IMG/VR virus record: IMGVR_UViG_3300032030_000016
Reading direction: 5' to 3' (one strand)
Source: a virus
Lineage: Duplodnaviria > Caudoviricetes
Length of the DNA: 64,000 nt
Shown here: one piece after another, positions 4,083 through 48,158 of the stretch
Layout of the letters: each line of letters starts with the position of its first letter
Numbering within the stretch: position 1 is the first letter of the stretch
The notes under the pieces: generated by a model
Database searches by the model: none
What the model saw: the letters and a program-made list of their open reading frames with translations, nothing else
Told to the model about the DNA's origin: nothing
Made by a program: the position numbers and the translations under genes

Positions 4083-4132
4083 AAATCGCAAAAGTGCAGT
4101 ACTTTTGCACTTTTGCGATTTGTTTCTTTAAT
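4083..4132 (+). promoter_or_regulatory. 16-bp inverted repeat containing the AAAAGTGCAGTAC / TGCAC-N16-TnnAAT element (candidate late promoter and/or terminator)
   Basis: aaatcgcaaaagtgca 4083-4098 and tgcacttttgcgattt 4106-4121; the motif recurs at 29244 and 46556. Confidence 0.55.
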
Positions 4133-5381: not shown

Positions 5382-5710
5382 GTACAAAAAATGAAGAAAA
5401 ACAAATGCTCGTCAAACAAACAACAATAGATGTTGCAAAAAAAACATCTAAAAGATTCAATGGTATAAATACACCAGAAATTAAAATGATAATTGACGAG
5501 ACTTTTAATGTAATAAAAGAAATGATTCTTGATGGTGATTATGTTGTTATACAAGGATTAGGGGTTTTTTATACAGACTATCTTGATGAAGTTGATATAA
5601 AAGACCCAAGAAATAATGATATAATTCATTTTCAAAGAAGAAAAGTTCCACGCTTTTATTTTTCAAGAAATTTTAAAAAACAAATAAAAACATTTGATGA
5701 AAAGAAATAA
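5378..5710 (+). CDS. HU/IHF-family DNA-binding protein
   Basis: GDYVVIQGLGVF, DPRNND and RRKVPRFYFSRNFK match the HU arm motif. Confidence 0.8.
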   Translation: MSTKNEEKQMLVKQTTIDVAKKTSKRFNGINTPEIKMIIDETFNVIKEMILDGDYVVIQGLGVFYTDYLDEVDIKDPRNNDIIHFQRRKVPRFYFSRNFKKQIKTFDEKK

Positions 5711-6035
5711 AACTATGGGATTAATAGAAAAAAAGGAAAAAATAAAAAAAGAAAAATCTCAATCCATGAAATTGAATAAAAAGAAAATTATTCAATATAT
5801 AGCAGATAAGACATATGATAATGAAGACAAAATTGGTTACTATTTTGATTCCATTTTTTATGGCATATCTTTAGCTTTACAAGAAGGGTATGAGGTTCCT
5901 ATTGCTGATTTTGGTAAGTTTTACACAAAAAAAAGACATGTAAACAATCAAAGTATTGGGTTTGTTGGTGATATAAAGAAGATATTTTTTAAACCAACTA
6001 AAAAATTAAAAAAACTTATAAATAATAATGAATAA
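5694..6035 (+). CDS. Second HU/IHF-like DNA-binding protein
   Basis: EGYEVPIADFGKF and FKPTKKLK. Confidence 0.7.
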   Translation: MMKRNKTMGLIEKKEKIKKEKSQSMKLNKKKIIQYIADKTYDNEDKIGYYFDSIFYGISLALQEGYEVPIADFGKFYTKKRHVNNQSIGFVGDIKKIFFKPTKKLKKLINNNE

Positions 6036-6044
6036 AAAGAAAGA

Positions 6045-6079
6045 AAAAAAGGAGATGAGCATTAATCAACTCCTTTTTT
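6045..6079 (+). terminator. Intrinsic terminator-like hairpin
   Basis: aaaaaaggag...ctcctttttt. Confidence 0.55.
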
Positions 6080-6101
6080 ATTTAAAAGAAAGGAGTGTTA
6101 T

Positions 6102-7349
6102 ATGGCTAGACCAAAAGGTATGGTCATTACAAAAAAAGAAAAAAGTAGTGACAATGCTGAAATGATTCAATCTGAAATAGACGCTCTTTCTCAAAAAATA
6201 CAAGAAAAGGGTAATATAAAAGAAGTTGATGAAAAAATAATTGTTTTTGCTTGCCCTCGATGTGGTGAAACATCTAAAAATAGTTTCTACCCATCGTATA
6301 ATAAAACAAATATAATTTCAAAAAAAACTATTTATTGTAAAAAATGTATTGATGAAATATATAATGAATCACTACAATTATTTAAAAATGATAAAATAGC
6401 TATTACAAATGTTTGTCAAATATTAAATATTCCTTTTGATGAACGAATATATAATTCATGTAAAGAACTTGAAGACGAAGAAATTGACAAGTCATTAATA
6501 AAAACGTATTTTGAAAAAATTTCTGTATATAAATCTATTTATAATATTGGTGATTCATATGCAGATGGTGATACATTTTTTATAAAAGATAGTATTATTT
6601 CTAATGATGAATATAGTCAATATAAAGATAATATTGATAAACAACAAGAATACTTACAGCAAGTAAAAAAAACTGATGAAACAGTAAAAAGGAATAAAGA
6701 AGATGTTATAAGAATTGTTGGAGCTGACCCGTTTGAAAACTATCCTCCTGAAGATGCCACTGAACTATATGCTTCTTTATTAGATTTTTTAGATGAAGAT
6801 GTTGATCCACCAAGATTTTTATTAAACATATATATAGAAATTATAAAGAATTTCTATTTATTAGATAAAATTAATGAAGAAATGCTTATTCAAACATCTG
6901 ATTCCGAAAATTTATTTGCTAATGCAAAACAAATTAAAACATTAAATGATACAAAAACCACAATACAGAATACAATTAATAGGATTGCTTCTGATAATCA
7001 AATTAGTTTAAAAACCGCTAAAGATAAAGGCGATAAGAGTAAAAAGTTTACATATATTATAAGAAAATTAATGGAATATGATGATTTAGATGATGTAAAG
7101 TCAAATGTTTTTGATATAAAAACATCAAAAGCAATGGCTGAAGTTGAAAAACAAAGTTTTGGCAATATGATTTCACAACTTAATATTGAAGAGAACGATT
7201 ATATAAACGTTCTTGCCAATCAAAGAAATAGGATTGCTGAATTAGAAAGTGAACTATTGAAAACAAAAGAAAAAAATCGTGCCAAAACAAAACGAATAAA
7301 TAAACTTGAAGAACGCTTAAAAAGTTTGAGTGAGAAAAATGAAGAATAA
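6102..7349 (+). CDS. Zn-finger / coiled-coil protein, possible terminase small subunit (YonG-like position)
   Basis: CPRC and CKKC motifs; directly upstream of and overlapping the large terminase. Confidence 0.5.
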   Translation: MARPKGMVITKKEKSSDNAEMIQSEIDALSQKIQEKGNIKEVDEKIIVFACPRCGETSKNSFYPSYNKTNIISKKTIYCKKCIDEIYNESLQLFKNDKIAITNVCQILNIPFDERIYNSCKELEDEEIDKSLIKTYFEKISVYKSIYNIGDSYADGDTFFIKDSIISNDEYSQYKDNIDKQQEYLQQVKKTDETVKRNKEDVIRIVGADPFENYPPEDATELYASLLDFLDEDVDPPRFLLNIYIEIIKNFYLLDKINEEMLIQTSDSENLFANAKQIKTLNDTKTTIQNTINRIASDNQISLKTAKDKGDKSKKFTYIIRKLMEYDDLDDVKSNVFDIKTSKAMAEVEKQSFGNMISQLNIEENDYINVLANQRNRIAELESELLKTKEKNRAKTKRINKLEERLKSLSEKNEE

Positions 7350-9186
7350 TATTATTACGTCTAAATCATTTTATAGTTTATCACAAAGAAAACAAGACCA
7401 TTATGAACAATATATTAAACTTTTAAAATGGGGTAGAAAATATCCAATACGTTTTATTGAAACATTTTTCAATGTTGAATTATTAGACTACCAGAAATAT
7501 TTAATTTCAAAAACATGGGTTGCGGATAACTCATTATGGCTAATGTGTCGTAATGGCTCAAAAACAACATGTTTATCTTTTTATACTTTAGCAAGATGTA
7601 TTTTATTTCCAGATACAGAAGCATGGCTTATATCAAGAACTGGTTCGCAATCAAAAGAGTTATACGGCAAAATGGAAAAAATGGCAAAGAAGAGTCTTCC
7701 TTCATTTCCTAATTTAAGTGATTTTATTCTTGATGAGAGTGAAAAGATTCTCCATGATGACCAATCATATGAATGGACTTTCCCAAATAAAAGTTCCATA
7801 CATACGTTAAATGGTATTCCAGATAATGCTCGTGGACATCGTTCCACGTTGAACATTTATGATGAAAGCGCATTTATCACCGAAGAACTCTTTAAAGCAA
7901 CAGAACCTTTCCTACTTCAAGACTCAACATTTGTTACTGGTGTAAATCTTGAAGAAAGACCAGACCCACCGGGGAATCAAAGAATATTTGCCAGTTCTGC
8001 TGGTGATGTTGATAGTTATTTTTATTCTCAATATCGTGATTATTTTTTGAGAATGATGGGTGGAGATAGTAGATATTTTGTTGCTAATATTGATGCAGAT
8101 ATGCTGTTTGATGCCACAATGAATGGCAAAGTATATCCTGTTTCACTAATTAAAAAAGAAGATGTAAAAAGAGATTTACAAAAAGAACCAGCTAAAGCAA
8201 ATAGAGAATACTATAATAAATTCGATTCTGATGGTGGAATTAATCAAGTATTTAGACGGTCTTTATTGATAAAAAATTCAGAACAACGTGCACCTATTCT
8301 TTTTAATAAAGATGGAGATAAGCGTTTTATTCTCGCTTATGATCCTGCAAGAACATATGATAATAGTATTGTTGCTATTGCAGAAATAAAAGAACATCCT
8401 AATGGTGGTTATAAAGCAGAAATATGTAATTGCATATCACTTATTGACACCAGAGTAAAAAAGAAAAAGCCAGAAACCACACCAGATCAAGTACAAGCTA
8501 TAAAAAAAATGCTATTAGATTATAATGGTTGGAATATACCTGATTATGAAAATATAGATAGTTTGTGTGTTGATGCTGGCCCGGGAGGCGGGGGTATGAT
8601 AATAGCAGACCTTTTTATGGAGAATTGGATAGGAGAGGATGGAACAGAGCATAAAGGACTTATTGATCCTCAAATTAGTAGTGATTATGTCTCTCGATTC
8701 CCACAAGCAATCCATAAATTAAAACTTGTTGAACCTACTAAAATGAAACGGATTGCTTTTGATAACCTAAGAGAACTTCTTGCTCAAGGTAGAATTACTT
8801 TTACTGAAGAATTTAAAAAAGGAAATTCTACTATTACTATAGTTGAAAAAACACCAAAAGGGAAAGACAAAACAATAGAGAAGACAGTTTCAACTGAAGA
8901 GGCGTTGGCACTTATCAATATTGAACTAATGAAAGGTGAACTGGTTAATATTTATCGTAAAGATACAACTAATGGGTACACATATGATTTAAATCCTGAA
9001 CTAAAAGGAAGAAATTTCGATGATAGAGCATATGTTTGTGCTTTAATAGCATTAAGATTATCCGAGATAAATAGAGCAAAATTAAATAAAAATCCAAATA
9101 ACTTTAATTATGCAAATTTCATTTATGGAACTTCAAGTGGTTCAAAAAAAACAAATATTTTTGGAAGTTCATTTAATGGATTTTGA
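7339..9186 (+). CDS. terL: Terminase large subunit
   Basis: Walker A-like RNGSKT, ARGHR, Walker B IYDES, ASSA coupling motif, nuclease AYDPAR and DDRAY. Confidence 0.88.
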   Translation: MKNNIITSKSFYSLSQRKQDHYEQYIKLLKWGRKYPIRFIETFFNVELLDYQKYLISKTWVADNSLWLMCRNGSKTTCLSFYTLARCILFPDTEAWLISRTGSQSKELYGKMEKMAKKSLPSFPNLSDFILDESEKILHDDQSYEWTFPNKSSIHTLNGIPDNARGHRSTLNIYDESAFITEELFKATEPFLLQDSTFVTGVNLEERPDPPGNQRIFASSAGDVDSYFYSQYRDYFLRMMGGDSRYFVANIDADMLFDATMNGKVYPVSLIKKEDVKRDLQKEPAKANREYYNKFDSDGGINQVFRRSLLIKNSEQRAPILFNKDGDKRFILAYDPARTYDNSIVAIAEIKEHPNGGYKAEICNCISLIDTRVKKKKPETTPDQVQAIKKMLLDYNGWNIPDYENIDSLCVDAGPGGGGMIIADLFMENWIGEDGTEHKGLIDPQISSDYVSRFPQAIHKLKLVEPTKMKRIAFDNLRELLAQGRITFTEEFKKGNSTITIVEKTPKGKDKTIEKTVSTEEALALINIELMKGELVNIYRKDTTNGYTYDLNPELKGRNFDDRAYVCALIALRLSEINRAKLNKNPNNFNYANFIYGTSSGSKKTNIFGSSFNGF

Positions 9187-9219: not shown

Positions 9220-11025
9220 TTGAAAAAATCTTCCGAAAAAAAAGAAAACACAAAAAATAAAGAAGTAATTTTAACAGAATCACAAAAACAATGGGCAAAC
9301 TTATTTTCTCAAATTAAACAATTTCATCCTAATGAAAATTTTCAGCAGAGATATTTAAAAACATATCCAATAAATATCAATGGTATGAGTGAAGCATTTA
9401 TTGGCAATGCTATTATGATGAATGAAAGACTGAAAAAGTTAAATACTTTTCCAGCTAAATACGATAAAGCAAAAATACAAGAAATGTTAGCTAATCCACA
9501 AAACTATGAAATGGATTTACGTGCTTTATCACGTTATGTTTATAATACACTTACACCAATATACAAACAAGTAAATTTATATGCGGATATACTGACATAT
9601 CGAACTTATGTAAATATATCTGAAATTAAAAGTCAATCAAAACTTATTAAAGAATATAATCGAATTTCTAATTTTTTGAGAAATTTTGACCCCGAAAGAA
9701 CATTTAGAAAAACAACATTATGTACTGTATTGGATGGTAAATCTTTTTGGTATTTAAGAACAGACAGAGGAGAAGATAATATTTGTTTGCAACAGTTGCC
9801 ATCTGATTATGTAAAAATAACAGGAATAACAAATAGAGGATTTCAAATTGCTTTTAATATGGTTTATTTCCTTGATCCTGCAAATAGTGTTCTTTTTTTC
9901 CCTCCTGAATTTAAGGAATATTTGAATAAGTTTTATGGATATTATAATAAAAATACCAAAGTGTTTGATTTAGATAAATTTGAAAAAGCTGGAATAGAAG
10001 ATGTCATTGCTTTTCAAGAACAATCTTCTTTATATTTTTGGCAATTTCTTGATATTAATAAATCATTTGTTTTTAGTATAGATGAAAGCACATTTGATAC
10101 AGCCCCAGCTTTAATGGCAAGTTTTGGTTCCGCTATTGAATTAGATAAATATAGAGCACTTGAACAAGAATTATTGAGTTTACCATTACAAGCATTACTT
10201 ACTTCTGAAATAGAAATAAGTGATAAAAATCTTTCTGGAATATATAGTGATGATACTGCCATTACACCTGATATGGTTGCATTATTTACTGAATTATTGC
10301 AACAAAAAATGCCACAAACTGTATCAGCGATTGCAGCACCTTTTAAAAATTTTAAACTTCATGAATTTGAACATGTTGATACAAAAGATTCCGTTTTAGG
10401 TGATGCTTTAAAAAACTATTATATTCAAAGTGGTGTTAATTCCCTAATCTCAACAAGTGAAAAGCCAACTCTTAGCCAAACAAGAGCTTCTGAAAAAATT
10501 GAGGCGCGATATATAGATAAATTATATAATCAATATCAATCTTGTTTGAACAGTATTATAAAAACATTTAAATTAAAAAATGAATTTTCTATTCATATCG
10601 AAGGTGATGTTTTTTCAGATGATTCCGAATATTCTAAAGTGAAAGAAGCAGTACAAAATGGTCAAACAGACCTTATTCCGAAACAACAAAGTTTCTTCTC
10701 TTCACATGTTGATGAAGCATTAGCAACAAGACAATTTATGGAAAAATGTGACTATCAAGGAAGTCTAGCACAAAAAAATATATCTATACAACAAAAACAA
10801 AGTACAGGAAATCCAGTAGGAAGACCATCTTCTAATGTTGATGAAGTTACCTCTGAAAATACAGCAATATCAATAGAACAAGGAACAAACACAGTTGAAG
10901 GCAGAGAAGTAACTAAAACATCTGAAACAACAACAAATACTGAAGAAACTTTTGCTAAATTATTTTCGCAAATGAGCGAAGACGAAATTGAGGACATAAA
11001 GGATTTTTTGAATGAAAATTATTAA
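9220..11025 (+). CDS. Portal protein
   Basis: TTG start after AAGGAGG; follows terL; LQQLPSDYVKI motif typical of SPbeta YonE-like portals; size. Confidence 0.75.
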   Translation: MKKSSEKKENTKNKEVILTESQKQWANLFSQIKQFHPNENFQQRYLKTYPININGMSEAFIGNAIMMNERLKKLNTFPAKYDKAKIQEMLANPQNYEMDLRALSRYVYNTLTPIYKQVNLYADILTYRTYVNISEIKSQSKLIKEYNRISNFLRNFDPERTFRKTTLCTVLDGKSFWYLRTDRGEDNICLQQLPSDYVKITGITNRGFQIAFNMVYFLDPANSVLFFPPEFKEYLNKFYGYYNKNTKVFDLDKFEKAGIEDVIAFQEQSSLYFWQFLDINKSFVFSIDESTFDTAPALMASFGSAIELDKYRALEQELLSLPLQALLTSEIEISDKNLSGIYSDDTAITPDMVALFTELLQQKMPQTVSAIAAPFKNFKLHEFEHVDTKDSVLGDALKNYYIQSGVNSLISTSEKPTLSQTRASEKIEARYIDKLYNQYQSCLNSIIKTFKLKNEFSIHIEGDVFSDDSEYSKVKEAVQNGQTDLIPKQQSFFSSHVDEALATRQFMEKCDYQGSLAQKNISIQQKQSTGNPVGRPSSNVDEVTSENTAISIEQGTNTVEGREVTKTSETTTNTEETFAKLFSQMSEDEIEDIKDFLNENY

Positions 11026-11173
11026 TTTAAAACAATTATTTTGTAAACATGATGATATAGCATGGAGTAAAACAAAAATAATGAGTTATCCTGAAATTTA
11101 TCGTGGTGTTTGTAAAAAATGCGGCAAAAAATGTAGTAAAATCGGTAAAGATGGTGAAATTGTATGGGAATAA
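11012..11173 (+). CDS. Small Cys/His-rich protein (53 aa), not in the ORF track
   Basis: MKIINLKQLFCKHDD...GVCKKCGKKC...WE*; fills the gap between portal and the next gene. Confidence 0.55.
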   Translation: MKIINLKQLFCKHDDIAWSKTKIMSYPEIYRGVCKKCGKKCSKIGKDGEIVWE

Positions 11174-11177
11174 AATA

Positions 11178-11711
11178 ATGAAAGAAGATAAAATTACAAA
11201 AATGAGTTTAATTGATAATGAGCTTGGTAGTTTGATGAATGTTGTTTCACAAAAACTATTTAAAGCAAATGCTGTTATGGATTGTATCTCTTCAAGATTA
11301 GATACAGTTTTTGGAATGCCAAAAGCATCTGAAATCTTACATCATAGAATAGCTCATAAATTTCCACTTCTTGCAGATATTATTACGGAATATTTAGGAA
11401 AAAGAAATTATGCTGTTTACTATGGTCTTATTCCACAGATAGATTATAGATATGATAAACCCTCAGAATATTTTTGGGAATTTGTTAATATAATGGGAGA
11501 AATAAGAGATGATATTAATTTAGCTATTGAAAAAGCTGAATCTATAAAAGACTTTTCAGCATCTGACATTTTGTCATCTTTTTTGTCAGAATATGTTGAT
11601 TTATATACAAAACAATCTTTTATCTTTTATTATCAATCATTACAAGAAGAAGAACACGGGAATTTATCATCTTTTAATTCTCATTTTGAAGACCTTATGA
11701 TAATAGAATAA
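11178..11711 (+). CDS. Ferritin-like four-helix-bundle protein (degenerate ferroxidase site)
   Basis: ADIITEYLGKRNY, AIEKAESIKDFSASDILSSFL and helix spacing resemble ferritin/Dps. Confidence 0.55.
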   Translation: MKEDKITKMSLIDNELGSLMNVVSQKLFKANAVMDCISSRLDTVFGMPKASEILHHRIAHKFPLLADIITEYLGKRNYAVYYGLIPQIDYRYDKPSEYFWEFVNIMGEIRDDINLAIEKAESIKDFSASDILSSFLSEYVDLYTKQSFIFYYQSLQEEEHGNLSSFNSHFEDLMIIE

Positions 11712-11743
11712 TTTCTAATTTAAAAAAGAAATGTGGATTAGAA

Positions 11744-12034
11744 ATGGCAAAAAATGTATGGTTTTTATCTAGGACAATTAATAGATATTTAGGTAATGAT
11801 TTATTTTTAATGAGAGCTAAAAAGCAAAGGAGGCAACAGCGTATGAAGGGAAGTTTTTATCACGATAAAATTGAAGGCCCGCAGAAAGTGAAAGCATATT
11901 TTATAGCTGCTGAAAAAGACAATATTTCAACAACTACAGTTTATGATGAAATTGGGCAAATGGTTCTTTATAACGATGAACTTTATATTTATACAAAAGA
12001 TCTTGAATACAAGAAGATTTCAGTTGCTTCTTAA
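11744..12034 (+). CDS. Hypothetical protein
   Basis: 96-aa ORF in operon context. Confidence 0.55.
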   Translation: MAKNVWFLSRTINRYLGNDLFLMRAKKQRRQQRMKGSFYHDKIEGPQKVKAYFIAAEKDNISTTTVYDEIGQMVLYNDELYIYTKDLEYKKISVAS

Positions 12035-12066
12035 TTGAAAAAATTATATTATGAAAAAAAGGATTT

Positions 12067-12726
12067 ATGAGTAATAAAAGCATTTTAATCGCAATACCGA
12101 ATATTGGAACTGTTTCAACAAATTTTATGTCACAAATGCTTGGAATGAATTATGGTAAATATACCATTGGTTATAGATTTATAAAATCAAATTTATTATA
12201 TTTATCGAGAGATAAACTTGCGTTATCTGCAATAAATAACAATTTTGATTATATATTATTTCTTGATACAGATCAACAAATACCAAATGATACCATATTA
12301 AGAATGGCAAAACATCTTGAGAATGGTGAAGATATTGTTACAGCGTTGATATTTACAAAAGAAAAACCATATAATCCATGTATTTATTCTGAATCAAAAA
12401 TTCTAGAAACAGGACAATTAAGTTTAAAATATTATCCCGTATCTGAAATACCTTTAGAACCTTTTTATGTTGAAAATTGTGGTTCTGGATGTGTTATGTT
12501 AAAAACTGAAGTATTTAAAAAAATTCCACAACCTTGGTTCCATCCATATATTTATTCAGGAGAAGATGTAACTTTTTTTCATGTTGCTACTCATACATAT
12601 GGATATAAAATTTTATGTGACCCAACAATAGATGTTGGTCATTGGGGAATTGAAAATATAAATAGAACAACGAAGTTGCTTTATGACGAAGAAGTTATTA
12701 GAATGAAAAGAGGTAATGTTTTATGA
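12067..12726 (+). CDS. GT-A fold (GT2-like) glycosyltransferase
   Basis: ILIAIP start, RDKLA, FLDTD (DxD), GSGCVML, GEDVTF, VGHWG. Confidence 0.85.
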   Translation: MSNKSILIAIPNIGTVSTNFMSQMLGMNYGKYTIGYRFIKSNLLYLSRDKLALSAINNNFDYILFLDTDQQIPNDTILRMAKHLENGEDIVTALIFTKEKPYNPCIYSESKILETGQLSLKYYPVSEIPLEPFYVENCGSGCVMLKTEVFKKIPQPWFHPYIYSGEDVTFFHVATHTYGYKILCDPTIDVGHWGIENINRTTKLLYDEEVIRMKRGNVL

Positions 12727-13475
12727 AAAAAGTTCTTATAACTGCTCCAGTTCATCAAAGTGTAAATATTTTTAAAGAATATTTATGGTCTTTAAATAGA
12801 TTGATTATTCCAGAGGATGTTGAAATAAAAAAGTTCTTTTATTTACATAACTGTGAAGAATTAAAAGAATTTTTAAATGAAGATGAATATATGATATTAA
12901 ATGATGATTCATCTTTTGAAGTTACAGAAAAAACACATATGTGGAAAAATGAAAATTTTTCTGCTGTTGCTAGAATGAGAACAATGGCTCTTGAAAAAGC
13001 AAAAGAAGAAAATTTTGATTATATATTTTCAATTGATTCAGATGTGTTATTAAATCCAATTACTTTACAATTGTTAATTAATGATAATAAAGACATAGTT
13101 GGGAACATATACTGGACTGATTTTGACGGAAAAGGTTTATTATTACCAAACTGTTATGATTATGAAAATTGTCAATTTAATCAACAAATTGGTGGAGTTG
13201 ATAGATTAAAAATAATGGGAGTTTATAACATAGGAGTTGTTGGAGCTTGCACGTTAATTGGGAAAAGAATTATACAAAATGATTATATAAATTATTTTCC
13301 TATAAAAAATATAAGTTCAACAAAATGGGAAGATCAGGCATTTATTACAAGATCAAGATGTTTAATTCCTGATATAACAGTTTGTGTTGATACAAGATTT
13401 CCTGCTCGTCATTTATATAGGCAATCTGAATATGAATTATGGATGAAAGATAAGAAAGAATGTTATGGGTATTAA
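12723..13475 (+). CDS. GT-A fold glycosyltransferase
   Basis: KVLITAPVHQ, FDYIFSIDSDVLL (DxD), GACTLI, WEDQAF, RHLYR. Confidence 0.85.
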   Translation: MKKVLITAPVHQSVNIFKEYLWSLNRLIIPEDVEIKKFFYLHNCEELKEFLNEDEYMILNDDSSFEVTEKTHMWKNENFSAVARMRTMALEKAKEENFDYIFSIDSDVLLNPITLQLLINDNKDIVGNIYWTDFDGKGLLLPNCYDYENCQFNQQIGGVDRLKIMGVYNIGVVGACTLIGKRIIQNDYINYFPIKNISSTKWEDQAFITRSRCLIPDITVCVDTRFPARHLYRQSEYELWMKDKKECYGY

Positions 13476-14184
13476 TAATCCAAAAATAGTTGTTGGAAGT
13501 CTTGTGTATAATGAAGAACACAGATTTTTAGAGAAATATCTTTTAAATATAAAAAAATATGCAGATAAAATTGTTCTAATAGATGATGGCTCAACGGATA
13601 ATTCTTTAAAAATATGCAAAGAAGTTACAAAAAATGTTTTTAAATCAGATAGATTATTCATAAAAAATGAAGTTGAATTAAGAAATGCTTTGTGGGTGAA
13701 ATGTTCTGAGTTATGTAATAATGGTGATTTTATATTAATTCAAGATTGTGATGAATTTTTACATGATGATTCCATAGAACACTTAAAAGAAGAAATAAAT
13801 ACTTGTGTAACACTTGAAGGCGATGCAATAGCATGGCGTTTATATGATATGTGGAATGAAACACAATATAGAGAAGATTCTTATTGGAGTGCACACAAAA
13901 GATGGTGGATTCATATGGTAAGATATAATAATCAAATTAAATATATGTGGAAAAACACGAGATTACATTGTGGAAGAATTCCAATTAACTCATATTATAA
14001 TGCATTTCCATCAAAATTACAAATCTTGCATATGGGATATTCCAAAGAAGATTTGAGAAAAGAAAAATATAATTTCTATATAACTACAGATGCAGATGGT
14101 CAAAATGGAAATTTATTACAATATAATTCTATTTTAGATATAAATCCAAAGTTATTAGATTTTAAAAGCAATTATATTTTTTAA
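13465..14184 (+). CDS. GT2-family glycosyltransferase
   Basis: VYNEE, IDDGSTDNS, QDCDEF, LHMGY. Confidence 0.88.
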   Translation: MGINNPKIVVGSLVYNEEHRFLEKYLLNIKKYADKIVLIDDGSTDNSLKICKEVTKNVFKSDRLFIKNEVELRNALWVKCSELCNNGDFILIQDCDEFLHDDSIEHLKEEINTCVTLEGDAIAWRLYDMWNETQYREDSYWSAHKRWWIHMVRYNNQIKYMWKNTRLHCGRIPINSYYNAFPSKLQILHMGYSKEDLRKEKYNFYITTDADGQNGNLLQYNSILDINPKLLDFKSNYIF

Positions 14185-14198
14185 AGGAGGAAAAAAAC

Positions 14199-16133
14199 TT
14201 GAAAATTGTAAATCTACCTGTTAAAAATTTTTCCTCCTCAAGAGAAGGAGATAATGCTGATTTTTTAAAAGTTACCTTAATGGCAGTAGCAGAAGGTAAA
14301 AATTTAAATAATTCCATTTTCACTCTTGAAGGGATGAAAACTAATAAAGACACCTTCATAAATAAACCAATACTCTGTGCTTTTCCAAATAAACAAATAG
14401 GAGATAACCATAATTTTGATATTGCTTTTGACCCAGAAACAGGTGAAGAATATCAAACTTTTCTTGATAAAAAAGCAGAAAAACCAGTTGGAATGATTCC
14501 TGAAAGTTCAAACATAAGAATTGAAAATATAGATGGGAAAAACTGGATAGTTTTAGATGGTTATATATGGAAAAAATATAATTATGAATTAGTCAAAGAC
14601 ATCTTAAAAAAGTCTAATGGTTGGTCAATTAGAAATAATAAAAATATTTCTGTTGAAATTATAGTAGATGATGAAACTATGGGATTTTCTGAAGATGGAT
14701 ATGAAATTTTAAATAATTGGACAGGTAATGGAATAACTATTCTTGCTGATAATGTTAATCCAGCAATAGAAGGTGCAAATATGAGTTTAGAAACGAAAGA
14801 AAAGAATTTTAGTAAAACTGATTATGATGAATATAAAAAAGGTTTTATGAAAGATTTCTCTTTATTTGCTAAAAAAGAAAAATATGGAACAGGAAAATCT
14901 TTAAAAATAGACAAAAGTAAAGAATCTGCTTCTAATGACAATTGGGGCGATATTGATAAAACCAAATTAAGAAATGATGTTTTAGAAGCAAAAAATTATA
15001 AATCAATTATAAAAGATGTTTATTTAAAGGTAGAAGATGGCTGGGAAGATGCTCCATCTGAACATTTAAAATATCCTGTTATGCAAATAAAAAATAATAC
15101 TCTTGTTTATAATCTTAATGCTCTTTCAAGTGCATTGGGTTATGCAAAAAAAGAAAATGAAAATGAAGTTGTAAAAAAAGTCGAATCTATTCGCAAAAAG
15201 ATGGGAATTGATGAAGACAAAAATAAGAATTTTGAAGAAAGGAGAAATATTATGAATTTTTCAGAACTTTTTGAAAATAATGACGAATATATTTTTATTG
15301 AAGCAATGGATGAAAATAAAGTTCTCGTTTTTTCCAAATCAGAAAAAATCTTCAAAGCAATTCCTTATGAAGAAAGCGAAGATTCAAATGTTGTTCTTAT
15401 GACAGAACAAGCAAAAGAATGTTCTTTATTTGTTACTGAAAAGGAAGAAATTGTTGAACAAGACAAAAAAGAAGAAAATATGTCATTGGATGAAAATGAA
15501 GAAATAATTGAACAAGATAAAAAAGAAGAAAATTTATGTGAAAAAATGAAATTTGCTTGTGAAAAAGAATTATCTGAAATTTTTGTAAAAATGATGGCAG
15601 ACCAAACAGAAGAACAAAAAATAGTCGAACAAGATAAAATTGATGAAGAAGATGATGAAGATGATGATAAACACGAAGAAGAGCACGAAGAAGATTATCA
15701 AAAACTAAAAGAGGAATGTTGTGCTCTTAAAGAAGAAAAAGAATGTTTGAATTCTCAAATTATCTCTCTTAGTGAAGAATTAGAATCTTGTAAAACAGAA
15801 TGTGAAGAAAAAACAAGGCAACTTTCTGAAGCTCAAGAAAAACTTCAATCTTATGTAGAAAAAGAAAAAGAACAAATGTATTCTGATATGAAAAACGAAT
15901 TGAAAGAATACGCAAAAACTAATCACATGTCTGAAGAAGATTTCAAAGAAGCTGAAGAAAAATGTAAAGAATTTTCATCTATGGATGAATTTATGAAGTT
16001 TGTCGTATTTTCTCAATATGTTAAAAATAAAAACAATAAATCAAATGATTTTGTAAATATGGGTGGTGCTAATTTCGGACAACATGATATTCCATCTAGT
16101 GAAAACGTTTGGGAGAAATTAGCTAAGATTTAA
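14199..16133 (+). CDS. Prohead protease / scaffold protein (YonD-like)
   Basis: GKNLNNSIF, KPILC, GYIWKKY, ISVEI, NPAIEGA; acidic coiled-coil C-terminal half; upstream of the capsid genes. Confidence 0.7.
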   Translation: MKIVNLPVKNFSSSREGDNADFLKVTLMAVAEGKNLNNSIFTLEGMKTNKDTFINKPILCAFPNKQIGDNHNFDIAFDPETGEEYQTFLDKKAEKPVGMIPESSNIRIENIDGKNWIVLDGYIWKKYNYELVKDILKKSNGWSIRNNKNISVEIIVDDETMGFSEDGYEILNNWTGNGITILADNVNPAIEGANMSLETKEKNFSKTDYDEYKKGFMKDFSLFAKKEKYGTGKSLKIDKSKESASNDNWGDIDKTKLRNDVLEAKNYKSIIKDVYLKVEDGWEDAPSEHLKYPVMQIKNNTLVYNLNALSSALGYAKKENENEVVKKVESIRKKMGIDEDKNKNFEERRNIMNFSELFENNDEYIFIEAMDENKVLVFSKSEKIFKAIPYEESEDSNVVLMTEQAKECSLFVTEKEEIVEQDKKEENMSLDENEEIIEQDKKEENLCEKMKFACEKELSEIFVKMMADQTEEQKIVEQDKIDEEDDEDDDKHEEEHEEDYQKLKEECCALKEEKECLNSQIISLSEELESCKTECEEKTRQLSEAQEKLQSYVEKEKEQMYSDMKNELKEYAKTNHMSEEDFKEAEEKCKEFSSMDEFMKFVVFSQYVKNKNNKSNDFVNMGGANFGQHDIPSSENVWEKLAKI

Positions 16134-16733: not shown

Positions 16734-17852
16734 ATGGCTACTAAATATTTTTCTTTATCTAATCTTTCCAATGGCATGAAAGAACAGGAAAAAACTATTG
16801 CTCAAGCACTTTCTCAGCTTGGTTTATATAAACTGTATAGTGCTATTGGTAAAACCAATACTGTTGAAAATTTTTCTAATTTTGATTATGAACAGAAAAA
16901 TGAACTCGCTCTTAATAGCTTAATGAAATATTGTGCTGAATACGCTGGTTGCGGCACTGATATTGAATCTCTGAAAAGTCCTGCTACTCGCAGAGATAAA
17001 GATTTCTCCAAGAAATTCTTCGGTATTCTTCAAGTTGCAACTGCTCCTGTAATCGCAGAAGTTGTCAATCAGGCTTTCGACCATGTTGCAGAAATTCGTA
17101 ATGCTGGTTGGGGAGATTCTTTCTTGTTCCGTGTGGGTTCTCCTGCTCTGTTCCAAGTCAATATGCTTGCCCGTGGCATTAATCGTGGCGCTGCACAGCG
17201 TATCTATGATGAAAATCTCACTCTTATCCCCACTAATCGTGAAGTAACTGTTTCTATGGATTGGTATCAGATTGCCGCTGGCCGTTACGATATGGGTGAT
17301 TACCTGTTCCGTGTCGGTCGCTCTTTCGCTGCTGACATGTCTCAGATGGCATATAATGCTCTTGATGCCACTTTTGCATCTCTTCCTACTCCTCTGAAAT
17401 ATAGTGGTGCTTTTGATACTGAAACTCTTGATACTATGGTTCAACGTTTACAGGCATTGAATGGTCAGGCTATTTATGGTTTTGGTTCTCTTGGTGCTCT
17501 TTCACAGGTTCTTCCTGCGAATGACTGGTTGAAACTGCCTCTTGCTGAAGAATGGACATCTATGGGGTATGTTGGTCAATACCGTAGAGTTCGTTACGTA
17601 TTGCTCGAACAGAACATGGTTCCTGCTACTATTGGCACTTCTATGGACTTTGGTATTAGTCAGAATCGTATCTATTTGATGCCTATGTCTGCTGAAAAAC
17701 CGATTAAGATCGGCATTGAAGGGAACACTATGGTTTATGAAACTGATGCTGAAACTTCCGCTGATAATACCATTTTTGTCACTACACAGATGAGCTATGG
17801 TGGAGTTCTTGCTACAGCTAATCGCTATGGTATTTACGAAATTTCTGCTTAA
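16734..17852 (+). CDS. Major capsid protein
   Basis: 372 aa, AAAGGAG RBS, strongly biased codon usage, WGD motif, followed by a strong hairpin. Confidence 0.8.
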   Translation: MATKYFSLSNLSNGMKEQEKTIAQALSQLGLYKLYSAIGKTNTVENFSNFDYEQKNELALNSLMKYCAEYAGCGTDIESLKSPATRRDKDFSKKFFGILQVATAPVIAEVVNQAFDHVAEIRNAGWGDSFLFRVGSPALFQVNMLARGINRGAAQRIYDENLTLIPTNREVTVSMDWYQIAAGRYDMGDYLFRVGRSFAADMSQMAYNALDATFASLPTPLKYSGAFDTETLDTMVQRLQALNGQAIYGFGSLGALSQVLPANDWLKLPLAEEWTSMGYVGQYRRVRYVLLEQNMVPATIGTSMDFGISQNRIYLMPMSAEKPIKIGIEGNTMVYETDAETSADNTIFVTTQMSYGGVLATANRYGIYEISA

Positions 17853-17872: not shown

Positions 17873-17904
17873 AAGATGTATCTCTAATATTAGAGATACA
17901 TCTT
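17873..17904 (+). terminator. Perfect 32-bp palindrome after the major capsid gene (probable terminator)
   Basis: aagatgtatctctaat|attagagatacatctt. Confidence 0.7.
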
Positions 17905-22426: not shown

Positions 22427-23458
22427 ATGGAAAATTTTGTTGTTTCCGTTGCACGTGCAATTTTATTTGAACCTTCTACTAATGAGGTTCTTGCTTATGC
22501 CACTGCTCTTAGTGAATCTGCTTTTACTTTAGCAATGCAGTCTCAGGAAATTAGAGGTGGTATTGGTAACACTCTGAAATTCAACTATAAAAATACTCGT
22601 ACTTTGAATATTTCTTTAACAAATGTTGCTTTCAGTAAATCTTTCTTACCTCTTAACCTTGGTAAAATGAATGCCAACACTGAAATTGCTATCGCTAATG
22701 AACAGTGTATAGTTCTTTCAGAAACTGGTACTGGTACTCTCGAAAAGGTACCTCTTGGCCCTGTTTCTTATGTTTACGCAAATGGTATTATTGAAACAAA
22801 ACAGAATCCTACTCATTCTACTGCTATAGATCTTGGTACCGCTCACGCCAATGAAAAGATTACTGCAATTTATGATTATTCTGATACTATTGATAACTTA
22901 ACCATTGATTCTTCTACACCTCCGAACATTGTTCGACTTGTTATGAATGTTCAGATTCGTAGTAATGAAACTAATGGTATCGTTGAATGGTTACAGTTAG
23001 ATATTCCTTCTTTCCAAATTGACGGTAACTATGAATTATCTATGACAGCCGATGGTGTTTCAAGTGAAACTCTGACTGGTATGGCTCTTTCCGTTGCTGG
23101 ACAACAGTGTACTGATGGTGATATTTATGGTTACATTAAATATGTTCCAGTAGATGAAGCTACATATGCTGTTTCAAACATCGCTGCAACACCTTCACCT
23201 TTAGCTTTAAAGGCTGGCGAAACTGGTTCTATCAATGTGTATGGCTTACGTGGTTCCATGTATGCTCCACTTTTACTTACAGATGAATGTACATATGAAA
23301 TGCAAGAAGGTTCTGATGTTGATATTACTGTAAGTGAAACAGGTATTGTCTCTGTTTCTAGCGCTGCCTCTGCTTCCGACACTGGAACTGTTGTTATTAC
23401 CTACACCTCAGGTGATACTTCATACACTGATACTATTGTCGTCAATGTCGTTGAATAA
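22427..23458 (+). CDS. Major tail tube protein with C-terminal Ig-like domain
   Basis: QEIRGGIGN, high-expression codons, C-terminal beta-sandwich. Confidence 0.75.
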   Translation: MENFVVSVARAILFEPSTNEVLAYATALSESAFTLAMQSQEIRGGIGNTLKFNYKNTRTLNISLTNVAFSKSFLPLNLGKMNANTEIAIANEQCIVLSETGTGTLEKVPLGPVSYVYANGIIETKQNPTHSTAIDLGTAHANEKITAIYDYSDTIDNLTIDSSTPPNIVRLVMNVQIRSNETNGIVEWLQLDIPSFQIDGNYELSMTADGVSSETLTGMALSVAGQQCTDGDIYGYIKYVPVDEATYAVSNIAATPSPLALKAGETGSINVYGLRGSMYAPLLLTDECTYEMQEGSDVDITVSETGIVSVSSAASASDTGTVVITYTSGDTSYTDTIVVNVVE

Positions 23459-29317: not shown

Positions 29318-30340
29318 TTGAAACAACCGTATAATAAGTTCTCGAATGAAGAATATAAACAAGTTCCAAAAGAAAATAAAGAAATAGCTGAAGATTTTTT
29401 ATTATCTTTGAAAGGTGAAAAAACTGCACAAACAATTAGGGTATATACTAATAATTGTAAAATTATATTGATTATTATGTATAGGCTTTTTGGAGAGAAA
29501 AAAATAGTTCAACTTGTAAAAAAAGATTTAGTTAAAATGCGTGTTTATATGTTAGAAGATTTAAAATTATCAACAGCAAGAGTAAATATTATTTATTCAA
29601 CATTGAGAATGTTGATGTTATTTGCAGAAGAAGACCCTGAATACAGCAAAGATTTAGAAACACAATTTATTTCATGTGGAAGTAAAGTTAAAGGATTGCC
29701 AAAACAACCTGTAAGAGATGAATCAATGTTTTTTATGTCTTATGATTTAATTATAAAGATAAAAGATAAATTATTAGAAGATAATAATATACAAGGCGCA
29801 CTTATTCATATGATGCTGTATGAATCGGCCTGTAGAAGAAATGAACTTATTCAAATAAAAAAAGACGGATTATTGAAAAGCAATTGGACAAATGAAGTCA
29901 TTGGTAAGGGGAGGAAAAAGTTTAAACTTAGCTATCAGAATGATATAAAGCCATTAATAAAACAATGGTTAGATAGTAGAGATGATGATTGTCCTTATTT
30001 ATTTATAAAAACAAAAAATGATAAAGCAGAACCAATGACAGCAGAAGATGTTTATTGTTTTGTATCAACAAAAATTAGAAATATTGCAACTGATATTGAA
30101 GGAAAAGATAATGGATATACTTGCCATTCATATCGACATTCAAGATTAAACAATCTTCTTCACGGCACAGATTTAAGTTATATTGATAAAAATGGTAATC
30201 CTAAAAAAATGGATATTAATGATTTAAGACTTTTAGCAAATCATAATGACATTTCAACTACATCTGGATATGTACAAACATCAACAACTGAAGTTCTCAA
30301 TGAATTGTTTGGTTTTGATGAGGAAGAAGATAATGACTAA
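29318..30340 (+). CDS. Tyrosine recombinase/integrase (YomM-like position)
   Basis: Catalytic set intact: SACRRNE (R), GKG (K), HSYR (HxxR), NH (H), TSGY (Y). Confidence 0.9.
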   Translation: MKQPYNKFSNEEYKQVPKENKEIAEDFLLSLKGEKTAQTIRVYTNNCKIILIIMYRLFGEKKIVQLVKKDLVKMRVYMLEDLKLSTARVNIIYSTLRMLMLFAEEDPEYSKDLETQFISCGSKVKGLPKQPVRDESMFFMSYDLIIKIKDKLLEDNNIQGALIHMMLYESACRRNELIQIKKDGLLKSNWTNEVIGKGRKKFKLSYQNDIKPLIKQWLDSRDDDCPYLFIKTKNDKAEPMTAEDVYCFVSTKIRNIATDIEGKDNGYTCHSYRHSRLNNLLHGTDLSYIDKNGNPKKMDINDLRLLANHNDISTTSGYVQTSTTEVLNELFGFDEEEDND

Positions 30341-47633: not shown

Positions 47634-48158
47634 ATGGAAATAAAAATTATAAGATACCCAAAAGAAGAAGATTGGAAAAGAGCTTTGCTTTTAGCTCGTG
47701 AAACTCAAGGAAAAGAGGGTGAATTAACCCCCTCTTTTGAATGGAGAAAAAAACTTATTAATAGTGAACATTCCCCATTAAGAACAATAATGTTTACTAT
47801 TGAAATGAAAGACATACCTTATTATAACAGTGTTCATTTTGTGAGACACAAATTTGGCGTTGAACATTATGTAAAAAGTCAACGTTCTAACATTGATAGA
47901 GGTCTTGAACCACAAAATGCTCTTGTGAATCATATTATGGATATTAATGCACAAGCATTAATATTTATGGCAAGAAAAAGAATGTGCTATAAGGCAGATG
48001 AAACAACAAGACATATCATGAATATGATTGTTGCTGAAATTATAAAACTTTGTCCAGAATTTTCTCAATTTCTTGTTCCTGAATGTGTTTATAGAGGTGG
48101 TATTTGTCATGAATTTAAACCTTGTGGAAAAATGAAATTAAAATCTATTGACAATTAA
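47634..48158 (+). CDS. thyX: ThyX-like flavin-dependent thymidylate synthase family protein (short form)
   Basis: EHSPLR, HFVRH, SQR, PECVYRG motifs. Confidence 0.7.
   Translation: MEIKIIRYPKEEDWKRALLLARETQGKEGELTPSFEWRKKLINSEHSPLRTIMFTIEMKDIPYYNSVHFVRHKFGVEHYVKSQRSNIDRGLEPQNALVNHIMDINAQALIFMARKRMCYKADETTRHIMNMIVAEIIKLCPEFSQFLVPECVYRGGICHEFKPCGKMKLKSIDN

Follow-up and report, generated by a model that had tools for sequence, protein, structure and literature searches.

A large SPbeta-like phage carries three overlapping glycosyltransferase (GT) genes, GT1, GT2 and GT3, between its portal gene and a YonD-like head gene (Table 1; positions refer to the window, the whole 64,000-nucleotide stretch of DNA analysed). 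Cytoplasmic glycosylation of virion proteins appears to be the single most likely function of the three enzymes, a reading that we favour tentatively and with less than even confidence. Virion glycosylation, which the earlier note had proposed, is backed by the operon, the soluble GT-A enzymes, the gene contexts of relatives and the lack of a hydroxylated-base route. It is set back by a weakened argument from head position and by the lack of an acceptor tag.

Layout and expression of the cassette

Six open reading frames on the + strand are confirmed at 11012-14184 and encode Cys53, a ferritin-like protein, orf96, GT1, GT2 and GT3. GT1 and GT2 overlap by 4 nt (ATGA), and GT2 and GT3 overlap by 11 nt. 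The DxD motifs that the earlier note had read in the three GT genes are intact (DTD in GT1, DSD in GT2 and DCD in GT3).

The GT genes share one operon with the terminase (TerL), portal and capsid (MCP) genes. Terminator-like sites on the + strand bracket the unit, and none lies inside or adjoining the GT cassette, indicating that co-transcription of the GTs with the head genes is likely. In addition, the GT genes have no promoter, terminator or intergenic space of their own. A sigma-70-like promoter at 12346-12375 is attributed to chance, as shuffled sequence contains more matches of this kind than the region does. The claim that the genes are co-expressed late is thus supported as to co-expression, by a single operon free of internal terminator-like sites; as to timing, we infer late expression alongside the structural genes solely from the gene content of the operon.

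The flanking genes are assigned by comparison with other phages. By tblastn, the portal protein resembles those annotated in SPbeta-like, Lactococcus 949-like and TR-TP1 phages, and the capsid protein resembles one annotated as major capsid protein in SPbeta-like Bacillus phages. Language-model look-alikes of the 644-aa protein carry PF27290 YonD_N (score 0.97). This gene had been taken for a prohead protease, an assignment with language-model hints only and no Pfam or PDB sequence support.

The GT genes do interrupt the head-gene order, as had been claimed, because GT-less relatives run from portal to YonD without them. In GT-less Staphylococcus SPbeta-like phages YonD directly follows the portal gene, and in the GT-less Thomasclavelia phage TR-TP1 the order is portal, ferritin, DUF5659, YonD. 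An interruption by all six genes does not hold up. TR-TP1, which has no GTs, carries its ferritin homologue at the corresponding site between portal and YonD, and the ferritin-like gene (dN/dS 0.05-0.11) is therefore native to the head module. Orf96 sits where TR-TP1 has DUF5659, with no detectable similarity between the two; it is 61-64% identical in three related contigs (L010, L004 and L018) and conserved only in this lineage. Cys53 is intact in the same three contigs (77-85% identity, all four cysteines kept) and was not found on contigs of the second lineage described below or on L024; it appears to be lineage-specific and outside the mobile GT unit. Neither Cys53 nor orf96 accompanies the cassette in other lineages. 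The ferritin-like gene, Cys53 and orf96, which the earlier note had counted with the cassette, are thus all outside the portable unit.

Cys53 was also considered as a glycocin-like (sublancin-type) peptide and rejected: its C-x22-C-x2-C-x3-C pattern and lack of a leader peptide do not match those of glycocins. No transporter gene for such a system is present among the six open reading frames. Likewise, a defence system was considered and set aside, with no PADLOC match for any of the six cassette-region proteins.

Table 1 Features referred to in the text, with their positions in the window
Feature	Position	Strand	Support
Terminator-like site, upstream end of the unit	4083-4121	+	
Portal protein, upstream boundary of the cassette region	9220-11025	+	phrog_2739, E 6.8e-46
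Cys53, conserved 53-aa four-cysteine protein overlapping the portal stop	11012-11173	+	weak phrog_4188 match
Ferritin-like protein	11187-11711	+	27% identity, E 5e-10 to TR-TP1 'ferritin domain-containing protein'
orf96, basic 96-aa protein, no family match	11744-12034	+	lineage-restricted conservation
GT1, A197-like minimal GT-A glycosyltransferase	12067-12726	+	phrog_1574, E 2.7e-15
GT2, GT-A glycosyltransferase resembling Anp1 and GT25 enzymes	12723-13475	+	model; Anp1 match just below cut-off
GT3, family-2 GT-A glycosyltransferase, DDGSTD and DCD motifs	13465-14184	+	PF00535
YonD-like head protein, 644 aa, coiled-coil C-terminus, downstream boundary	14199-16133	+	phrog_3313, E 2.7e-29
Major capsid protein	16734-17852	+	tblastn
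Terminator-like hairpin of the operon	17873-17904	+	
343-aa protein, putative tail tube	22427-23458		
Putative tyrosine recombinase	29318-30340		sequence-only reading
Short ThyX-like gene	47634-48158		

The three glycosyltransferases

GT1 scores 22.8 bits against PF00535, just below the gathering threshold of 23.3. Its AlphaFold model (pLDDT 89.6) has a clear GT-A fold, and residues D67xD69, E166-D167 and H192 are invariant across homologues. The best PDB match of the model is A197 of the archaeal virus STIV (E 2e-11, TM 0.63/0.71). A197 (PDB 2C0N) is also the best sequence-profile match and, like GT1, is a bare catalytic domain of ~200 aa with a DxD motif. However, the identity is only 20%, and A197 is a lone enzyme, whereas GT1 belongs to a three-gene cassette. 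The major capsid protein of STIV is glycosylated; a role of A197 in this has been proposed, and its own acceptor was never shown.

GT2 scores 26.7 bits against the Anp1 Pfam family, just below the cut-off of 28.8, and has no PF00535 match. Its family comprises 619 representative homologues, across which D105xD107, E203-D204 and H230 are invariant. The AlphaFold model (pLDDT 94.9) has a clear GT-A fold, with COLGALT1 as its best PDB match (E 4.7e-14, TMq 0.69). Structural neighbours include the LH3 GT domain, Mimivirus R699, TarP and the Listeria WTA rhamnosyltransferase RmlT. COLGALT1 (GT25), LH3 and R699 are the best of these (TMq 0.6-0.7), at an identity of only 12-20%. COLGALT1 and LH3, GT-A enzymes that depend on a metal, modify protein as Hyl galactosyl- and glucosyltransferases of collagen. 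A collagen-type acceptor, prompted by these matches, was rejected: none of the frames of the genome contains G-x-y repeats. In addition, no lysyl hydroxylase is present among the Pfam families listed for the genome (25 of 33 in one survey). GT2 aligns with GT1 in hhalign (98.6%, E 1e-15) and is a distant paralogue of it. Both models have hundreds of matches (E < 1e-3) among solved GT-A structures.

GT3 passes PF00535 at 39.8 bits (cut-off 23.3) and PF13704 at 30.9 bits. The PDB entries closest to it in sequence are GalT1 of the Fap1 pathway (5e-5) and, at 2e-4, GmaR, a flagellin O-GlcNAc transferase. Among the three GTs, it alone has a weak GtrB-like PHROG similarity. Homologues of GT3 were found only on metagenomic contigs, several of them phage-sized and up to 149 kb. 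The GT-A assignment of GT3 is made from its Pfam sequence match, and those of GT1 and GT2 also from models.

None of the three enzymes has a transmembrane segment, and with pI values of 5.2-6.2 all are predicted to be soluble. The dN/dS of the cassette is 0.05-0.18, as it is for GT1 taken singly, and resembles that of YonD; by this measure, the GTs evolve under purifying selection. Most of the closest solved relatives of the GTs either have protein acceptors or come from viruses. The GT-A fold does not identify the acceptor, because DNA-modifying phage GT-A enzymes likewise best match TarP and a PBCV-1 capsid glycosyltransferase.

Relatives and mobility of the cassette

The cassette occupies the same site in four related contigs, with 75-95% protein identity for GT and head genes. 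A second lineage (L011/L019, L012, L013, L014 and L022) carries the same cassette plus one extra GT between primase and RecJ, where it would be expressed with replication genes. The expected conservation of the GT cluster in the head module of related phages is therefore seen in the four contigs and not in the second lineage. Identity to this phage is 43-54% for the cassette of the second lineage but only 21-28% for the replication proteins on either side of it. Judged from these comparisons, the GT trio is a portable unit, and of the six genes only the GTs are portable. Since the same cassette occurs in head and replication operons, position says little about the target, and this shift is a caution against inferring virion glycosylation from a place in the head module.

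Genes for distant relatives of GT1 have capsid or tail genes as neighbours in no fewer than three unrelated phages. On L024 the order is portal, S78 protease, HK97 capsid, GT1, GT2; in a Methanobacteriales virus a GT1-family gene lies between head and tail genes; and in a podovirus a GT1-family gene lies between MCP and tail tubular A, separated from MCP by one gene. This recurrence favours virion glycosylation.

A survey of 185,579 species genomes of bacteria and archaea gave no close homologue of the cassette. Among cultured phages there is no near DNA match, and no cultured relative carries the cassette.

TerL, portal and MCP are split in L010, and a GIY-YIG gene lies inside gyrB in L011. 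Phages of this kind are, by their sequences, rich in mobile insertions.

Possible targets of the enzymes

In the reading that we favour, the soluble, metal-dependent GT-A enzymes GT1, GT2 and GT3 would be made alongside head proteins late in infection, with host nucleotide sugars as donors. They would assemble a short glycan of up to about three sugars straight onto an acceptor in the cytoplasm; the likeliest acceptors are one or more virion proteins, modified ahead of assembly or in its course. Virion glycosylation in mycobacteriophages and the role proposed for STIV A197 would be counterparts. As a guess, the glycan may be started by the GmaR/GalT1-like GT3 and lengthened by the two paralogues, GT1 and GT2. 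The acceptor, the sugars and the order of enzyme action are all inferred. The Ser/Thr-rich virion acceptors suggested in the earlier note carry no tag that would mark them for glycosylation: there are no Ser/Thr or poly-Thr C-terminal tails on MCP, the putative tail tube or other structural proteins, and no collagen repeats. The strongest Ser-rich tracts are internal linkers of TMP. The same tails and repeats are also absent next to the distant GT1 relatives, and poly-Thr tails were rejected as acceptors in both settings.

The lack of a tag on virion proteins would suit another cytoplasmic acceptor, such as a non-virion phage protein, a host protein (for takeover or counter-defence), RNA or a small molecule. 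The position in either module would then be where a mobile unit happened to land, in line with the movement of the cassette as a unit between unrelated modules and with the abundance of mobile insertions in these phages. However, no specific candidate emerges, and it would not explain why GT1-family genes recur next to those for capsid and tail in unrelated phages; we consider this alternative unlikely, if a serious one. Decidedly less probable is conversion of the host envelope, in which teichoic acid or another wall polymer would be glycosylated at the cytoplasmic face, as by prophage TarP, and altered receptor availability would lead to superinfection exclusion or to avoidance of adsorption to debris. 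TarP, a phage-borne soluble GT-A enzyme, and RmlT are structural neighbours of GT2, and the putative tyrosine recombinase suggests that the phage may be temperate. Bacterial members of the GT2 family are fused to TagF-like glycerophosphotransferase domains, which points to the envelope, and also to TPR, methyltransferase and other GT domains. TPR/methyltransferase/GT fusions are known from cytoplasmic protein-glycosylation systems and would speak for the reading that we favour. Unlike the three minimal enzymes here, which lie in lytic-cycle operons, TarP stands alone, is longer and trimeric, and is expressed from a prophage; we take the three to be bare catalytic domains that lack the regions by which TarP, TarS and RmlT oligomerise and bind polymer. 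The GTs are locked in a late head operon (a replication operon in the second lineage), and neither moron-type separate expression nor a membrane-linked Gtr module was found, the genes having no promoter or terminator of their own and the proteins no transmembrane segments. Late lytic expression would presumably leave no time for new polymer to reach the surface, and the absence of close homologues from the bacterial and archaeal genomes also speaks against conversion.

Least probable of all, and in our view very unlikely, is DNA hypermodification, in which a modified base would receive a sugar chain from the three enzymes ahead of packaging, shielding the genome from restriction. Phage DNA can be poly-glycosylated by several enzymes, with group transfer late and up to packaging, some GT-A enzymes act on DNA, and the cassette of the second lineage is embedded between replication genes. 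The known pathways (T-even glucosylation, arabinosyl-5-hydroxycytosine and MT/TET/GT clusters) likewise use serial phage GTs, some of them GT-A and some in replication-gene neighbourhoods as in the second lineage. However, the known routes depend either on a hydroxylase or hydroxymethylase homologous to ThyA or on a C5-methyltransferase with TET, and this defining base-hydroxylating partner is absent here. The earlier note had seen no nucleotide-modification genes adjoining the cassette, and this extends to the whole genome for the known hydroxylating kinds: PF00303, PF12851 and PF00145 (ThyA-type, TET/JBP and C5-methyltransferase) are all absent from the complete 144.7-kb genome, which argues against DNA glycosylation. 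No base-hydroxylating enzyme is present among the Pfam matches listed for the remaining open reading frames, or on a 13-kb contig of the second lineage. The genes of nucleotide metabolism (dCTP deaminase-like, dUTPase, ThyX and thymidylate kinase) serve an ordinary supply of dTTP, with the short ThyX-like gene as the only loophole for a hydroxylated-base route, and the DNA methyltransferases belong to the D12 N6-adenine and N6_N4 classes. The acidic to neutral character of GT1, GT2 and GT3 also weighs against action on DNA.

The closest known systems for virion glycosylation are those of mycobacteriophages Che8, Corndog and Myrna, with glycans reportedly on C-terminal extensions of capsid and tail-tube subunits (Freeman et al. 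2023). These phages reportedly share with ours phage-encoded GTs that would act on structural proteins in the cytoplasm and the lack of a lipid carrier, flippase or ligase encoded nearby. They differ in that our phage has no such C-terminal extension and has three enzymes inside the head operon. In addition, the host here would be an organism with low-GC DNA, not an actinobacterium.

A broader reading is possible but rather doubtful. The three enzymes would form a portable 'glycan-coat' cassette that spreads horizontally among large phages, glycosylating folded virion surfaces without a Ser/Thr tag; in the same joint reading, the hosts would be uncultured organisms with low-GC DNA, and the cassette would land in different operons.

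The cassette represents uncharacterised GT-A families: the A197-like phrog_1574, a COLGALT1-like family below Pfam thresholds and a family-2 glycosyltransferase. Glycans displayed on phage particles alter how these are recognised by the immune system, and may also affect stability and interaction with the host. To our knowledge, mycobacteriophages are the only phages in which virion glycosylation has been demonstrated so far. If the virions of this phage are indeed coated, the phenomenon would occur outside mycobacteriophages, in a phage that also diversifies its tail fibre via a retroelement. It would then extend to large phages known only from metagenomes and would offer a three-gene unit for engineering.

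Layout and enzymes of the cassette

The window (G+C content ~27%) covers positions 38050-102049, reverse-complemented, of an IMG/VR virus record that is 144,664 bp long and rated complete. The phage is an SPbeta-like siphovirus. Its capsid protein has matches among the capsid genes of SPbeta-like phages of Bacillus, Staphylococcus, and Clostridioides, and the 644-aa protein encoded 3′ of the cassette, which the earlier note took for a prohead protease, resembles YonD. Six ORFs lie between the portal and YonD-like genes. GT1 and GT2 overlap by ATGA and GT2 and GT3 by 11 nt, and the remaining gaps among the six ORFs are 13-33 nt. No + strand terminator-like hairpin lies inside or adjoining the cassette, such hairpins flank it at a distance, and promoter-like matches are rarer than in shuffled sequence, indicating that the cassette belongs to the terminase/portal/capsid operon.

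Coordinates of the cassette, its surroundings, and features of related or adjoining sequences (window positions unless a contig is named)
Feature	Position	Strand	Remarks
Terminator-like hairpin	4083-4121	+	
Portal	9220-11025	+	phrog_2739
Cys53	11012-11173	+	overlaps portal stop codon
Ferritin-like gene	11187-11711	+	
orf96		+	
GT1	12067-12726	+	
GT2	12723-13475	+	
GT3	13465-14184	+	
YonD-like gene	14199-16133		
Major capsid protein	16734-17852		
Terminator-like hairpin	17873-17904	+	directly 3′ of capsid gene
ThyX-like gene	47634-48158		174 aa
ORF directly upstream of window	L113:129-983 (G000:C1:102028-102882)		284 aa
TR-TP1 ferritin-domain gene	L008:3199-3714		
Split head genes	L010:2132-5423, 5455-7619, 13289-14819; L018:221-2604		
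Interrupted gyrB	L011:143-2176		
GX15bay block	L110:1-10153		MK557849

GT3 clearly belongs to family 2 (PF00535, 39.8 bits; PF13704, 30.9 bits). By sequence, its nearest relatives of solved structure are GalT1, from the Fap1 glycoprotein pathway, and GmaR, which transfers O-GlcNAc to Listeria flagellin. The Pfam scores of GT1 and GT2 are slightly below the thresholds, and both were therefore checked further. Residues D67xD69, E166-D167, and H192 are invariant among GT1 homologues, as are D105xD107, E203-D204, and H230 among GT2 homologues, and an hhalign comparison (98.6%, E 1e-15) shows the families to be distantly paralogous. The AlphaFold models are confident (pLDDT 89.6 for GT1 and 94.9 for GT2). 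The top match of the GT1 model is the STIV A197 glycosyltransferase (E 2e-11; TM 0.63/0.71); that of the GT2 model is human COLGALT1, a collagen galactosyltransferase (E 4.7e-14), with LH3, Mimivirus R699, TarP, and A197 next in order. Hydrophobic segments are absent from all three proteins, which have pI values of 5.2-6.2 and are soluble minimal GT-A enzymes. No other glycosyltransferase is found in the complete genome. The earlier note's observation of a glycosyltransferase trio in the head region is confirmed, save for a correction on the ferritin gene (below) and with prohead protease as a merely putative label of the YonD-like protein.

Conservation and mobility

The arrangement is kept, wherever covered, in four related contigs (L018, L010, L004, and L026), across which glycosyltransferase and head genes share 75-95% protein identity. 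The dN/dS of the glycosyltransferases (0.05-0.18) is in the same range as that of YonD and further head genes, and the cassette has the G+C content of its flanks. Cys53 and orf96 are likewise conserved in this lineage; all four cysteines of the 53-aa Cys53 are kept in three relatives. In close relatives (three regions of L010 and one of L018), insertions of 0.3-1.5 kb divide the genes for the terminase large subunit, portal, and major capsid protein into two ORFs apiece. The inserts may represent introns, inteins, or homing-endonuclease genes, and the window copies carry none of them.

Relatives without the glycosyltransferases indicate what was inserted. The YonD homologue lies directly 3′ of the portal gene in a Staphylococcus SPbeta-like phage, and the portal and YonD sequence matches are at most ~0.4 kb apart in Brevibacillus phage Sundance. 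In Thomasclavelia phage TR-TP1, the order is portal, ferritin-domain protein, DUF5659, YonD, one further gene, and capsid. The window ferritin-like protein is homologous to that of TR-TP1 (E 5e-10), indicating that the ferritin gene, which had been counted as part of the insert, is native to the head module and that the trio is the addition. The ferritin gene directly follows the portal gene in both phages and is under strong purifying selection (dN/dS 0.05-0.11).

A GT1 profile search detected a second lineage, represented by no fewer than five different contigs (L011/L019, L012, L013, L014, and L022). There, the GT1, GT2, and GT3 genes keep the window's order, with an additional GT2 copy ahead of GT3, and overlap one another; they lie between primase and RecJ-like exonuclease genes, 3′ of the genes for gyrase, a Sak4-like protein, and DnaB. 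The second-lineage glycosyltransferases are 43-54% identical to those of the window, except the second GT2 copy (down to 37% in L013), whereas Sak4, DnaB, and primase are just 21-28% identical; the cassette has thus been transferred horizontally as a unit. It would work from the replication operon as well as from the head operon. The same division in two is seen among GT3 homologues, with contigs of at most 149 kb and 130 kb. Close relatives of the cassette were found neither in cultured phages nor in 185,579 prokaryote species genomes.

A GIY-YIG endonuclease ORF interrupts gyrB in L011, which again points to mobile elements moving frequently through these large phages. The mangrove-soil phage Caudovirales GX15bay, found via GT3, carries ~8 annotated glycosyltransferases and a methyltransferase in one block ending ~1.6 kb upstream of the large terminase gene, a much larger glycosylation island. 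Outside the window, the record encodes a Thg1-like tRNA-His guanylyltransferase, an RNA ligase, an anaerobic ribonucleotide reductase, a xanthine/uracil permease, and two Lar-like restriction-alleviation proteins. The ORF directly upstream of the window has a weak proteasome-subunit match (PF00227, E 2.7e-7), unusual in a phage.

Candidate acceptors

Known routes of phage DNA glycosylation are defined by partners such as a ThyA-type hydroxylase or hydroxymethylase, TET/JBP, or a C5-methyltransferase. The complete genome encodes no thymidylate-synthase-type hydroxylase or hydroxymethylase, no TET/JBP enzyme, and no C5-methyltransferase, and modification of DNA by the cassette is thus very improbable. 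A Pfam survey of the remaining ORFs found an ordinary dTTP supply (dCTP deaminase-like protein, dUTPase, ThyX-like protein, and thymidylate kinase), an anaerobic ribonucleotide reductase, Pol III alpha, and two DNA methyltransferases, of the D12 N6-adenine and N6_N4 classes. The genome lacks ThyA; the ThyX-like protein is short, and its Pfam matches cover just parts of the Thy1 model. Among bacterial GT2-family members, fusions occur with other GT2 domains, TPR repeats, methyltransferases, radical-SAM domains, and TagF-like domains, compatible with enzymes that decorate proteins or teichoic-acid-like polymers directly in the cytoplasm. Conversion of a host wall polymer seems improbable, and some other cytoplasmic acceptor is unlikely, if less so.

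Glycosylation of virion proteins is the best single explanation of the cassette, one that we favor tentatively; it rests on association and exclusion, without a recognizable acceptor. Distant GT1 relatives (25-31% identity) sit in structural modules of unrelated phages: after portal, S78 protease, and HK97-type capsid genes and followed by a GT2-like gene (L024); between head and tail genes (a Methanobacteriales virus); between capsid and tail tubular protein A genes, one gene after the capsid (a podovirus); and ~1 kb upstream of baseplate genes (a T4-like cyanophage). The Pfam matches listed for 99 neighbors of these relatives are mostly to structural families, a raw tally without background expectation. 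The sequences speak against the specific Ser/Thr-rich virion acceptors proposed in the earlier note: poly-Thr or Ser/Thr-rich tails are absent from the termini of all structural proteins, collagen repeats are lacking, and Ser/Gly tracts are strongest in internal linkers of the tape-measure protein. Capsid-side neighbors of the distant GT1 relatives likewise lack such tails. In addition, the alternative site in the replication operon takes much of the force from the positional argument for a virion target. What is specific here is a portable trio of an A197-like, a COLGALT1-like, and a GT2 enzyme, with two alternative insertion sites.
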